NCBI GenBank assembly: GCA_963816145.1
Contig: CAWFJP010000003.1
Span: 288,001-352,000, forward strand
Direction: 5' to 3'
Source: an uncultured delta proteobacterium
GTDB lineage: Bacteria; Desulfobacterota; Binatia; UBA9968
DNA length: 64,000 nt
Positions 3,190 to 7,094 of this stretch are shown here, one piece after another (the first letter of the stretch is position 1; every line of letters begins with the position of its first letter). Both the position numbers and the translations under genes were made by a program. The notes beneath the pieces are model-generated. The model saw only the letters and a list, made by a program, of their open reading frames with translations, was not told the origin of the DNA and did not search any database.

Positions 3190-3268
3190 CGTCATACCGG
3201 CGAAAGCCGGTAGGTTCGATTTCAGTTGGCTTACAAAAGCCTGGATTCCGGCCTGCGCCGGAATGACG
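3190..3268. repeat. ~80-bp paired palindromic element, GTCATNCCGGCG...CGCCGGAATGAC family (copy 1)
   Basis: Inverted arms gtcataccggcgaaagccgg / ctggattccggcctgcgccggaatgac; four more copies in the window. Confidence 0.8.
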
Positions 3269-3349
3269 GAAGGAAGAAACGATTTTCAGTCGACGAATTC
3301 AAAACCCCCTCGGCAAAAAAAACCGCGCCCAGCGAAACCACATTCATGC

Positions 3350-4348
3350 TTACTTCAGGCTTCCTTCGGCGCGCAGCTCCTGCTGGGCGGTCTTGAGAAT
3401 TTTCTCGTTGACGACCTGATCGACTGTGAATTTGGCGTCGATCAGATTATTGCGCTTATCTTCGTCGAGCATCACCTGCAGGCCGGCGATATTGACTGAT
3501 AGATCGCCGCTGAATCCCGGCGCAAATAAGTCGTAAGCCTGTTGAACGATCTCCGGCTCGCCTTGTAGTTTCGCTTCGAATCCGGCCTTGATCGAATCCG
3601 TCTTATTGGTCTTCGCGTAGTGAATGCCTAAAACCAATCCTTTCAAAAACCGTTTGGTGATATCCGGTTGCTTGCCGAGATAGTCGTTACGCGCGGTGAT
3701 CAGGGTCTGGGGAATATTGAGAGTATCGCTGAAGTTGGCGATCAGGGGAAAGCCCATGCGCATTAACCGCACGGTATCCTCGGGAGCAAATGGCGCCGCG
3801 GCAACCAGCCCTTTCTCCAGTGCACCCACGCGTAGGTTGCTGCCGCCGATGGCGCGCAGCAAAACATCCTTGTCGGGATCGATGCCTTTACGGCGCAGAA
3901 AAGTTCGCGTCGCGAAATCGGAAAACGCCCCGGCGCCGGTGACGCCGACGAGTTTGCCTTTGAGATCTTCCAAGCTGCGCGTCGATTTACTGCCGACTAA
4001 TTGGTAGGCCACCGCATTGGAGATGGCACCGATAATCGCGACATCCAAACCGCGCGCCCGGCTGCGCATGATCGCCTGTGCCCCGCCGATCTCGGCAAAA
4101 TCGACTTCGCCGGAGGATAGTGCCGCCAGAGCGGCAGGGCCGCCGCGCACGAAGATCGGCAGGATCTCCAGCCCCTGACTCTTGAAGAAGCCGCGCGCCA
4201 AGGCCACGCGAAACGGCAACTCGCTGTTCCACGCCAGTCCGGTGAAGACCACCCGGAGAGTTTTCCTTTCCTGGGCATGAGCCGGAGATTGGAGCAATAG
4301 GACGGATACGAACCATAGCACAACGTGAAAAAGATGCTTCATGACCAT
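3350..4348 (-). CDS. ABC substrate-binding protein, SsuA/THI5(NMT1)-like
   Basis: Signal peptide (..AHA-QE), ALSSGEVDF, LEDLKGK.VGVT motifs; paralog of the next gene. Confidence 0.88.
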   Translation of the reverse strand: MVMKHLFHVVLWFVSVLLLQSPAHAQERKTLRVVFTGLAWNSELPFRVALARGFFKSQGLEILPIFVRGGPAALAALSSGEVDFAEIGGAQAIMRSRARGLDVAIIGAISNAVAYQLVGSKSTRSLEDLKGKLVGVTGAGAFSDFATRTFLRRKGIDPDKDVLLRAIGGSNLRVGALEKGLVAAAPFAPEDTVRLMRMGFPLIANFSDTLNIPQTLITARNDYLGKQPDITKRFLKGLVLGIHYAKTNKTDSIKAGFEAKLQGEPEIVQQAYDLFAPGFSGDLSVNIAGLQVMLDEDKRNNLIDAKFTVDQVVNEKILKTAQQELRAEGSLK

Positions 4349-4351
4349 GAG

Positions 4352-5353
4352 TTACTGCTTCAACTTACCTTCGGCGCGCAGCTCTTGCTGGGCGATTTTG
4401 AGAATCCGGTCGTTGATCACACGATCGACGGTGAAGTTTTTTTCGACCAAACCGGTGCGGATATCTTCATCGAGCATCTGCTGGATGCCCGGCACGGCGA
4501 TCGTCAGATCGCCGGTTAGCCCCGGCGAATAAAGATCCCAAGCGGCGCTGACAATATCAGGGTCGCCCTGCATGCCGGCATCGTAGCCTGCTTTGATGGC
4601 ATCACGTTTGTTGTATTTAGCGATTTGCATGCCTTGAATATAGGCTTTGAGCACGCGCTTGCTGGTTTCAGGATATTTATCCAGCACTTCATTGCGCGTG
4701 ACGATAATATTTTGTGGAATGCCCAAGGACTCGTTCATGTTGCTAATCACAACGTAACCGGAGCGGATGAGCCGGACGGCGTCTTCGGTTGAAAACGGCG
4801 CTGCGGCAATAATCCCCTTCTCGATCGCGGCGGCGCGCAACACCGTGCCCCCGATGGAGCGCAATACGACGTCCTTATCGGGATTGATATTGTGCTTCTT
4901 GAGAAACGCTTTGACGGCGAATTCCGAATAAGTGCCGGCGCCGGTGATGCCGATCGGCTTGCCGCGCAGATCTTCGACGCTGCGGGTTTGCTTGTTGCCG
5001 AGTAGAATATAATTGGTGGTACTCGAAATGCAGCCGATAATCGTCAGATCCAGGCCGCGTGCTTTGCCGCGAAAGATCGCCTGTGCCCCGCCGATACTGG
5101 CGAAGTCCACTTCGCCGGAAATTAGAGCTGAAATCGCCGCCGGCCCGCCGCGAATCAAGATCGGCTCGATCTGCAATCCCTGCTGCTTGAAATAGCCTCG
5201 CGCCAACGCCGCGCGAAAAGGTATTTCGCTATTCCACGCCAGACTGACGAAGACCATGCGGATATTTTTCTTTTCCTGGGCCGACGCCGTCTCGGCGCAA
5301 AAAGCCGCGACGATAAGGCAAATCCCGACTTTCAATATTTTCCGTATGCTCAT
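4352..5353 (-). CDS. ABC substrate-binding protein, SsuA/THI5(NMT1)-like
   Basis: Signal peptide (..ASA-QE), ALISGEVDF, EDLRGKPIGIT; tandem paralog of 3350..4348. Confidence 0.88.
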   Translation of the reverse strand: MSIRKILKVGICLIVAAFCAETASAQEKKNIRMVFVSLAWNSEIPFRAALARGYFKQQGLQIEPILIRGGPAAISALISGEVDFASIGGAQAIFRGKARGLDLTIIGCISSTTNYILLGNKQTRSVEDLRGKPIGITGAGTYSEFAVKAFLKKHNINPDKDVVLRSIGGTVLRAAAIEKGIIAAAPFSTEDAVRLIRSGYVVISNMNESLGIPQNIIVTRNEVLDKYPETSKRVLKAYIQGMQIAKYNKRDAIKAGYDAGMQGDPDIVSAAWDLYSPGLTGDLTIAVPGIQQMLDEDIRTGLVEKNFTVDRVINDRILKIAQQELRAEGKLKQ

Positions 5354-5395
5354 CACTCCACCACTCCAATACTCCAGTATGTCAATCTCGCGAGG

Positions 5396-5863
5396 TCACC
5401 GCTTCGCGTACACAGTGGTCTTGCCGTTCTTGTCGAACGTGAGCACGCTATACGGCTCCGGTGTGCCGCCCTCCATGCCGGGCGATCCTACCGGCATTCC
5501 CGGAACCGCCAGACCGACGATGGGTGGTTTTTCCTTGAGCAATTTTTCGATTAGGTCAGCCGGTACGTGGCCTTCGATAACGTAACCCTCGATTATCGCA
5601 GTGTGGCAGGCGAAAAGTTGTTCCGGCACACCGCGCTGACGCTTGAGGTCGGTGAACGCCTTGCCAAATAAAATTTTCTTGTTGACTTTAAATCCGCTTT
5701 TTTCCAGGTGCACGACCCAGCCATCGCAGCAGTCTCAGGTCGGAGTCTTGTAGACCGTGATCGATTTTGCCGCGGCTTTCGCCGGCGCTTGCGCGGACGC
5801 CGGGGAAAGCAGAAACAAGCTCAAGGCGAGAACGGTATATGCGGCAAAACGGTTATTTCGCAT
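5396..5863 (-). CDS. DUF411/CopG-family secreted metal-binding protein with in-frame TGA (putative selenocysteine) at 5735..5737
   Basis: ATG 5863 reads MRNNRFAAYTVLALSLFLLSPASAQAPAKAAAKSITVYKTPT*DCCDGWVVHLEKSGF... in frame with ORF 5396..5713 (CHTA, IEGHVPA, LAVPGMPVGSPGME). Confidence 0.85.
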
Positions 5864-5898
5864 CGATCCACCCAACCCCGACTAATTTACCAGATACG

Positions 5899-5929
5899 TT
5901 GACATAAATGCGAGCGCTGTTGTAACGAT
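5899..5929 (+). promoter_or_regulatory. Possible sigma70 promoter for the amidohydrolase gene
   Basis: Perfect TTGACA at 5899..5904 with only a weak -10 (TGTAACGAT); AAGGAGG RBS follows. Confidence 0.25.
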
Positions 5930-5954
5930 CATCAATACAATAAGGAGGTCGGCC

Positions 5955-7094
5955 ATGACCAGGAACGGCATGAAGGTCTTGGATAGCGATATGCACCTGA
6001 TGGAGCCGGTGGATCTTTGGCAGCGCTACATCGACGCGAAATTCAGCAGCGAGGCGCCGCGCGGCGTCACCAGCGAAAATGTCCGCGACTTGCGCATGGT
6101 GCATCCCGACGGTCGGCTCTGGGGTCTGCCGCCGCGCCACAGCGAACGGACCGTGATCAATCCCGGTCACAATTTCAAAAAGAACCAAAGCACCTATCGC
6201 GGCCACTCGGAACGCGGCTGGACCGCCGAAGTCCAGCTCGAAGCCATGGATGTCGAAGGCATCGACGTCGCCGTGCTCTATCCGACCCGCGGGTTGAATG
6301 TCCTGAGCGAGCCGCATATGGAACCCAACTTCGCCGACGCGTTGGCGCGGGCGTATAATAATTGGCTCTACGATTTTTGCGAGAAAGATCCCAACCGGCT
6401 GCTCGGCGCCGGCATGCTGTCGACTTTCGATATCGATGATGCCGTCAAGGAAGCCAAGCGCTGCGTTAAAGAGCTCGGCTTTCGCGCCGTGTTTCTGCGC
6501 TCGAACATCATGAACGATCGCAATTGGCATGAGGATTATTACGAGCCCCTGTGGAGCGCGCTGGAAGAGCTCGCGGTCCCGGTCGGTTTTCATGAGTCAT
6601 CGTCATCTGCGGCGCGCCAGACCGGCGATTGGTTCGAGCCCAATTTCATGATGCGCCGAGCGGTCGCCCAACCGATGGAACAGATGCTCGGCTTGGTGGC
6701 GATTTGCTCCGGCGGCGTGCTCGCCCGCCATCCCAAGCTGCGGGTGGCGTTTCTCGAAGCCAATTGCACCTGGTTGCCTTGGCTTTTATGGCGTTTGGAC
6801 GAAGGTTGGGAGCGTGAAGGCGATATCTGGGCCAAGGATCTGACGATGAAACCGAGCGATTATTTCAAACGGCAAGTGTTTGTCTCCGTCGAACCGGACG
6901 AAGCCGGCGTAAAATATGTCATCGATTACATCGGCACCGACCGGCTGGTTTTTTCCACCGACTATCCCCATGGCGACTCGAAGTATCCTCAGGCCGTGAA
7001 TAGCTTTCTTGAATTGAAAATCGCCGACGAAGACAAGCGCAAGATACTTTGGGACAACTGCGCCGAGTTTTACAAAATCGATAACAGGCCATAG
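5955..7094 (+). CDS. Amidohydrolase_2 family protein
   Basis: LDSDMH, VLYPT, AYNNW, GFHE, FLEAN, FSTDYPHGD motifs; strong RBS. Confidence 0.92.
   Translation: MTRNGMKVLDSDMHLMEPVDLWQRYIDAKFSSEAPRGVTSENVRDLRMVHPDGRLWGLPPRHSERTVINPGHNFKKNQSTYRGHSERGWTAEVQLEAMDVEGIDVAVLYPTRGLNVLSEPHMEPNFADALARAYNNWLYDFCEKDPNRLLGAGMLSTFDIDDAVKEAKRCVKELGFRAVFLRSNIMNDRNWHEDYYEPLWSALEELAVPVGFHESSSSAARQTGDWFEPNFMMRRAVAQPMEQMLGLVAICSGGVLARHPKLRVAFLEANCTWLPWLLWRLDEGWEREGDIWAKDLTMKPSDYFKRQVFVSVEPDEAGVKYVIDYIGTDRLVFSTDYPHGDSKYPQAVNSFLELKIADEDKRKILWDNCAEFYKIDNRP

Follow-up and report, generated by a model that had tools for sequence, protein, structure and literature searches.

We analysed a stretch of 64,000 nucleotides from an uncultured delta proteobacterium (assembly GCA_963816145.1, contig CAWFJP010000003.1, positions 288,001 to 352,000), hereafter called the window, whose minus strand carries a gene for a homolog of the copper protein CopG (family DUF411, PF04214) with an in-frame TGA at the first cysteine of its metal-binding motif. 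The reading frame opens at ATG 5863 and closes with the stop at 5396, and its sole interruption is the TGA at 5735..5737 (codon 43), the proposed selenocysteine (Sec) codon. The read-through product has 155 residues and reads ...SITVYKTPT-U-DCCDGWVVHLEK..., with the motif SITVYKTPT-U-DCCDGWVVHL at the site. Its 24 N-terminal residues (MRNNRFAAYTVLALSLFLLSPASA/QA) have the basic, hydrophobic and A-x-A layout that by eye resembles a signal peptide, and in all relatives the frame stays open over 37-185 codons upstream and encodes a comparable hydrophobic stretch. The program-made list of open reading frames (ORFs) holds a shortened version of the gene, ORF 5396..5713, which is without the signal peptide and without the U-x-C-C motif. 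The first-pass annotation of the window had proposed the extended frame to ATG 5863 with its single TGA, and re-reading of the minus strand confirmed it; it had also taken TGA for an ordinary stop elsewhere, in agreement with the genome, in which TGA terminates 742 of the 1920 open frames of at least 400 codons and is the commonest stop. The CopG/DUF411 gene itself also terminates in TGA. The same annotation had advised a comparison of the TGA letters with other data: contigs from three DNA runs of different studies, one of which may be the source sample, span 5735..5737 and keep the TGA, with no alternative letter listed. A scan of 3200..6100 for a sigma-70-like promoter found none and was uninformative.

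The read-through product matched the Pfam family DUF411 (PF04214) with 91.5 bits (cut-off 27, E 2.6e-26), matched no other Pfam family and gave no meaningful match to NCBIfam, including its selenoprotein models. A profile of 24 relatives found one solved relative, PDB 6WIS/6WJE, with an E value of 2.2e-36 across the whole mature part. In the profile alignment with 6wis the TGA column is the first Cys of C-G-C-C, which bears out the earlier placing of the TGA at the first position of the DUF411/CopG cysteine motif; what stands there is C-x-C-C, known from the copper cluster of CopG, and not the plain CxxC that had been read. Positions 3 and 4 of the motif are invariant Cys and position 1 is the TGA, and the C-x-C-C/U-x-C-C motif is complete only under the Sec reading of the TGA. 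The invariant columns of the family include U/C9, C11, C12, W15, H18, C52-H53, EGHVP and VPGMPxGSPGM; the two Met of the last segment (M123 and M130) were equated with the Met pair of CopG through the profile alignment only and not residue by residue. An AlphaFold (AF2) model built from the alignment of the relatives reached a predicted local distance difference test (pLDDT) value of 94.5. Foldseek superposed this model on the CopG chains of 6WIS/6WJE with a template modelling (TM) score of 0.88-0.91, a root-mean-square deviation of 1.3-1.8 A and 43% identity, and the runners-up were NrdH and glutaredoxins with TM about 0.4. The modelled U lies directly before helix 10-21 and after strand 2-5, a location that in the model is that of the N-terminal active-site Cys of thioredoxin-fold proteins. 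From its sequence, the product is predicted to be an exported thioredoxin-fold CopG/DUF411 homolog encoded by a single intact gene. A review describes CopG as a periplasmic protein that holds a tetranuclear copper cluster by means of CxCC and two adjacent Met; CopG also has a part in anaerobic copper resistance and has been proposed to oxidise Cu(I) and hand copper to CueO (PMC7558416).

The read-through protein served as query against 60 related genomes and had a match in 24. Exactly one in-frame TGA was present in 24 of the 26 non-self matches, at 49-83% identity; the two others are a second copy without a stop (L047, 42% identical) and a 35-residue fragment (L045) from an unpublished genome, which was excluded. 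Within the order of the window the TGA stands in the same column, VYxxPx-U-x-C-C, in all motif-bearing genes (25/25, window included), and the codons flanking it vary synonymously among these 25 genes. The ITVYKTPT strand upstream of the TGA shows in-frame conservation in Sec and Cys forms alike. A scan with one genome per species yielded at least 596 relatives, of which the best 80 were kept and 79 were classifiable: the column holds TGA in 13, TGC in 51 and TGT in 15 loci. Among these best 80 of at least 596, the non-TGA loci thus encode Cys in 66/66 cases and Trp in none. The TGA forms come from metagenome-assembled genomes (MAGs) labelled Candidatus Binatia, 'delta proteobacterium', Gemmatimonadota, Acidobacteria/Vicinamibacteraceae, Rokuibacteriota, Ardenticatenaceae and Ca. 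Fredericiella, and span MAGs labelled as five or six phyla, Chloroflexota among them. The combined set, with two duplicates removed, comprised 36 distinct Sec-form genes, in which TGA is invariant at the site column, and 67 Cys-form homologs with TGC or TGT. The conservation of the TGA is far beyond chance, and the independent homologs with TGA at the same Cys that the first-pass annotation had proposed to look for are found under all these labels.

In a 301-genome sample from the phylum of one Gemmatimonadota MAG the family was present in 236 genomes, and 18 of the 150 matches listed carry one TGA, a tally for which the TGA column was not verified and which includes three unpublished genomes. 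No match was obtained among 400 other genomes sampled from the window's own phylum (0/400), so the gene is patchy there, and this sample supplied no Cys forms for comparison. A tree of 103 rows placed 29 Sec forms in one clade, made up of the window, its relatives, the named Binatia MAGs, one Acidobacteria MAG and two Gemmatimonadota MAGs, and 7 Sec forms were interspersed among Cys forms. This clustering suggests Candidatus Binatia as the origin of the window. Several genomes hold more than one copy of the gene: G033 has a TGA form (L039) together with the stop-free L047, G567 and G646 of the Gemmatimonadota-phylum sample each carry a TGA form alongside a stop-free form, and G037 has two identical TGA-form copies (L043, L046) about 1.16 Mb apart.

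The genes selA, selB, selC and selD, which the first-pass annotation had named for checking, are all in the source genome. The matches reached 616 bits for selA, 417 bits for selB, 380 bits for selD and 74 bits for the Sec tRNA, all above curated cut-offs. Furthermore, selD carries its own in-frame TGA at G-U-A-A-K, and UxxK is the motif listed for selenophosphate synthetase (Table 1, PMC13188914). A selD with its own Sec codon and the full apparatus indicate that Sec decoding is in use in this genome. Among the genomes with the CopG homolog, selA was found above the cut-off in 12/13 with the Sec form vs 14/25 with the Cys form, the latter drawn from 25 of the 66 Cys-form loci.

A hairpin resembling a Sec insertion sequence (SECIS) follows the UGA. 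Its stem, of 6 base pairs in the RNAalifold consensus, begins 14 nucleotides after the UGA, and the spacing from the UGA to the loop is 20 nucleotides in the window. The bacterial SECIS (bSECIS) model, as given in a 2026 review, has a loop of 3-9 nucleotides, a stem of 4-16 base pairs, a G within the first two loop positions, a UGA-to-loop distance of 16-37 nucleotides and a minimum free energy (MFE) of -7.5 kcal/mol or lower (PMC13188914). The window hairpin lies within the published geometry for loop, stem, G and spacing, which answers the SECIS check that had been advised. Perfect hairpins under bSECIS geometry occur in 36/36 Sec genes and 55/67 Cys genes, and those of -7.5 kcal/mol or lower in 17/36 Sec vs 3/67 Cys genes, with means of -6.8 and -2.7 kcal/mol, respectively. 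The local 27-nucleotide MFE was -8.8 kcal/mol for Sec vs -4.9 kcal/mol for Cys forms, and 26/36 Sec forms pass -7.5 kcal/mol on this measure. The loops of the Sec forms are mostly GGU, closed by G-C. Across the 36 Sec sequences 91.2% of cells are paired in the conserved hairpin vs 31-50% when it is slid along the alignment, and the outer pair swaps between CG and GC (12 and 12 sequences). The covariation of the Sec forms was 0.240 vs 0.140 in shuffles, with 0/500 shuffles as high, whereas the 67 Cys sequences gave no covariation signal for the same structure (279/500 shuffles as high). Residues H-L, encoded by the 3' arm, are found in 35/36 Sec forms vs 32/67 Cys forms, a bias that may reflect either RNA constraint or shared descent.

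Two other hairpins were considered and rejected. A wider version with two more outer pairs (columns 31-51 and 32-50) was dropped because these positions are unpaired in 29-31 of the 36 sequences. The hairpin of the first-pass annotation is present in the sequence, and its loop is close to the UGA as had been remarked, starting 12 nucleotides after it and so outside the range of 16-37 nucleotides; it is not conserved, with 63.9% of cells paired across the 36 Sec genes and 40/500 shuffles matching it, and it is the next hairpin, at 5704..5720, that is. Folding of the three closest relatives (L022-L024) does predict the earlier hairpin. The GTG at 5711..5713, which gene callers choose as the start, sits in the loop of the conserved hairpin.

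Public protein databases hold the gene mainly in its shortened version. Among the best 120 of 7762 matches, 115 extend over no more than 67-69% of the full reading; they are 105-123 residues long (one has 161), share 75-98% identity, start at the internal GTG point and are named 'hypothetical protein' or 'DUF411 domain-containing protein'. The five full-length matches comprise one form with Ser, two with Trp and one with Cys at the site, and one tandem double-domain Cys form. The two Trp entries (P0023 and P0052, 156 residues) read DPG-W-GCC at the Sec column and may stem from short contigs on which TGA was translated as Trp (a TGA=W code). The entry P0003 (230 residues) has two tandem DUF411 domains, the second with C-A-C-C and the first cut at its N-terminus. 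Among the 119 prokaryotic selenoprotein families and subfamilies in Table 1 of the May 2026 review (PMC13188914) there is no DUF411, PF04214 or CopG, and the same names are absent from the main texts on deep-Sep, BSepDB and SelCysML and of a 2022 review, the supplements of which may list more. Our literature search for a link of DUF411, CopG, COG3019 or Binatia to selenocysteine or selenoproteins returned nothing relevant among the papers listed.

Downstream of the gene, on the same strand and after 40 nucleotides, follow two genes for NMT1-type binding proteins, and a divergent amidohydrolase gene lies upstream. The NMT1-type tandem recurs in the same-genus relatives L034 and L036, and the contexts in other phyla are different. 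The neighbours in the window encode UbiD, a VTT domain protein, the two NMT1-type proteins, amidohydrolases, a GFO/IDH/MocA protein and a molybdopterin enzyme. In two of the 18 Sec loci whose neighbourhoods were examined (L067 and L044) a DsbA-like gene (PF01323) stands directly upstream and has its own in-frame TGA at SDYV-U-P-x-C; the DsbA-like selenoprotein is a type already catalogued (PMC13188914).

Features of the CopG/DUF411 locus and related elements in the source genome and in relatives. Positions without a contig or locus name refer to the window.
Feature	Position	Strand	Remarks
Full CopG/DUF411 coding sequence	5396..5863	-	155 codons and final TGA; one internal TGA, proposed Sec
Shortened ORF	5396..5713	-	program ORF list; GTG start at 5713, 105 residues
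Putative Sec-type signal peptide, residues 1-24	5792..5863	-	MRNNR / hydrophobic core / A-S-A; by eye
In-frame TGA, proposed Sec codon (codon 43)	5735..5737	-	at first Cys of C-x-C-C
Cys codons C45 and C46	5726..5731	-	complete U-x-C-C; alignment columns C11 and C12 invariant
Conserved SECIS-like hairpin CUGGGU-CGUGC-ACCUGG	5704..5720	-	RNAalifold consensus; 6-base-pair stem, 5-nucleotide loop at 5710..5714
Hairpin of the first-pass annotation, UGC-U-GCGAU/GGCUGG/GUCGU-GCA	5709..5731	-	overlaps and is mutually exclusive with the conserved hairpin
V-P-G-M-P-x-G-S-P-G-M segment with M123 and M130	5474..5497	-	columns M89 and M96 invariant in 24/24 sequences
Paralogous NMT1/THI5-like periplasmic binding-protein genes in tandem	3350-4348 and 4352-5356	-	
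selA, selB and selD, adjacent; Sec tRNA about 10 kb downstream	contig 30, 562492-566803 and 576761-576851		loci L001, L002, L010, L013
DsbA-like ORFs, apparently cut at the N-terminus	L067:1750-2322 and L044:900-1382	+	L067, Acidobacteria MAG; L044, family-level relative

The gene of the CopG homolog very probably encodes a selenoprotein in which UGA codon 43 specifies Sec and gives the motif U-x-C-C. We read the TGA as Sec because dozens of relatives in several phyla keep a TGA at the same metal-binding Cys. The first-pass annotation had described a selenium-containing copper redox protein; its selenium part is supported by our analysis, and its tie to copper comes from homology alone, since the neighbourhood offers no link to this metal. 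The 43% identity and the motif in common with CopG make copper the probable substrate, by analogy and with distinctly less assurance than the reading of the codon. During translation, SelB with the Sec tRNA would bind the hairpin (stem 14 nucleotides after the UGA, loop G at position 1 or 2) when the ribosome arrives at the UGA, where Sec would be inserted; the pre-protein would then be exported by way of the putative signal peptide. In the periplasm the selenolate, two Cys and two Met would hold copper, and by analogy with CopG the copper cluster may buffer copper or oxidise Cu(I). Compared with sulfur, the selenium ligand would be more nucleophilic, have a lower pKa and be easier to re-reduce. 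As a more speculative extension, to which we give somewhat less than an even chance, the selenolate of U43 could bridge a multinuclear copper cluster and make the product a natural Cu-Se cluster protein, with Sec tuning its redox behaviour for Cu(I) oxidation or buffering at scarce oxygen; soil and sediment phyla appear to have swapped Sec and Cys versions repeatedly, and copper tolerance in these bacteria would thus depend on the selenium supply.

Several observations weigh against the Sec reading or its extension to copper and have to be considered together with the alternatives. The window hairpin alone reaches only -3.8 kcal/mol and is among the weakest of the family, and the 60-nucleotide fold that contains it (-11.7 kcal/mol) has a z value of 0.18, with 111/200 shuffles equal or better. 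Five of its six pairs are dictated by the W-V-x-H-L codons, so that Cys forms also pair 297/402 cells, and the MFE over offsets 3-55 does not differ between Sec and Cys forms (-14.6 vs -15.7 kcal/mol). Moreover, the sequences are kin, and the shuffle and rank tests therefore overstate the signal. One Sec-form MAG of 3.6 Mb, labelled Rokuibacteriota, is without a selA match. The sole RNA contig examined, from a 90-95% relative, spans 5317..5581 and stops short of the TGA; this contig could be DNA carry-over, and small shares of the window are present in three RNA runs. The tree requires 8 changes between Sec and Cys, of which well-supported branches force only 1; with a single forced change and 122 columns, too few for the purpose, it leaves one or several origins undecided, and repeated origins are not claimed from it. 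The public protein P0002 (154 residues, from one contig), near-identical to L026, has Ser at the site (TPT-S-DCC), which may reflect a natural replacement of Sec by Ser or a mistake in the assembly. A lone in-frame stop in one genome would ordinarily mean a nonsense mutation, and the Ser of this relative would suit a pseudogene or a faulty assembly as well; here, such explanations have a negligible probability, as 36 distinct genes, the most distant of about 50% identity, have the TGA with frames intact on both sides, three other assemblies keep it, and the 115 shortened public entries with 75-98% identity imply many further copies. Judged by their sequences, the TGA homologs show neither upstream frameshifts nor relaxed constraint, and this contradicts decay or error. 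We consider it very unlikely that the UGA is read through or bypassed without Sec, whether by a near-cognate Cys or Trp tRNA or through a 105-residue cytoplasmic product from the GTG with a separate leader. Gene callers do give the 105-residue ORF, P0023 and P0052 show Trp at the site, possibly from TGA=W calls, and the window hairpin is weak. However, the 105-residue product would be without strand 1, U-x-C-C and the signal peptide, three elements that show in-frame conservation; in this genome ordinary stops are most often TGA, the non-TGA loci have Cys throughout and never Trp (66/66 in the best 80 of at least 596), and the Sec forms go with selA.

The remaining alternative keeps the Sec reading and changes the substrate: the product could be a true selenoprotein that acts as a periplasmic thiol or selenol oxidoreductase or handles mercury, silver, arsenic or selenium. 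No copper gene was found within 12 kb in the window, nor among the 68 neighbour ORFs at the 18 Sec loci, in which the only candidates were one OEP and one AcrB-type fragment. In two lineages the gene upstream encodes a DsbA-like selenoprotein, many metal-linked selenoproteins are implicated in mercury or arsenic resistance according to the 2026 review (PMC13188914), and in the model U takes the classic nucleophilic position of the thioredoxin fold. On the other hand, the product shares 43% identity and a TM of 0.9 with copper-loaded CopG, the three motif positions and both Met are invariant, and the Sec and Cys forms intermingle on the tree, which suggests a single common function. We regard a substrate other than copper as unlikely, at roughly one chance in a few, and retain the Sec-containing CopG homolog with copper as its probable ligand.

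If the Sec reading is true, it adds a widespread family to the prokaryotic selenoproteome, one often found in uncultured bacteria of soil, wetland and sediment, which selenoprotein surveys cover poorly. Selenium would also occupy the site at which the solved homolog carries its copper cluster, a coordination not described for any listed selenoprotein, and such a Se-Cu site is directly testable, as the structure of a Cys form is available. Furthermore, gene callers shorten these genes to about 105 residues and lose the signal peptide and the whole metal motif, so that the proteins look cytoplasmic and motif-less in databases.

The closest known proteins are CopG of Pseudomonas aeruginosa (PF04214; 6WIS/6WJE) and CutG of Rhodobacter capsulatus, which belong to the same Pfam family. 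The product of the window gene resembles CopG in its fold, the location of the motif, the two invariant Met and, by eye, its apparent export. Unlike CopG, the Sec forms, which are known here from genes alone, have a TGA as the codon for the first motif position. The CopG family is frequently, though not obligatorily, linked to other copper genes, whereas no copA, cusCBA or cueO was present at the window or at the 18 Sec loci. In Escherichia coli fdhF the SECIS loop is GGUC, and the upper stem-loop of 17 nucleotides, located 11 nucleotides after the UGA, suffices. The conserved hairpin is like this minimal SECIS in being a short stem-loop at a fixed distance after the UGA, with a loop that opens with G followed by G or U. 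Compared with fdhF, the stem of the Sec forms has 6-9 base pairs, includes two G-U pairs and has a sequence largely set by the W-V-x-H-L codons. The GGU loop closed by G-C agrees with N1-G-[G|U]-N-N2, the loop pattern of the bSECIS model (PMC13188914).

Among catalogued selenoproteins, those of the thioredoxin fold with U-x-x-C or U-x-C motifs (DsbA-like form 1, thioredoxin and thioredoxin-like Sec.2, PF13192) likewise have Sec in place of the N-terminal Cys at the start of helix 1 (PMC13188914). As in these proteins, the Cys homologs of the present family are abundant and the SECIS, a candidate here, follows the UGA closely within the coding sequence; they differ in belonging to other Pfam families, and the present motif is U-x-C-C, with a third chalcogen ligand. 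A presumed soft-metal site with Sec and a tie to copper is also found in the listed SO_0444 family Cu/Zn efflux transporter (UxC), the cation-transporting ATPase E1-E2 (UxxC) and the CopZ-family (2Fe-2S)-binding proteins (PMC13188914). The folds of these copper-linked selenoproteins are unrelated to that of the CopG homolog, and they are membrane or cytoplasmic proteins, none of them a soluble periplasmic cluster-binding protein such as the one proposed here.

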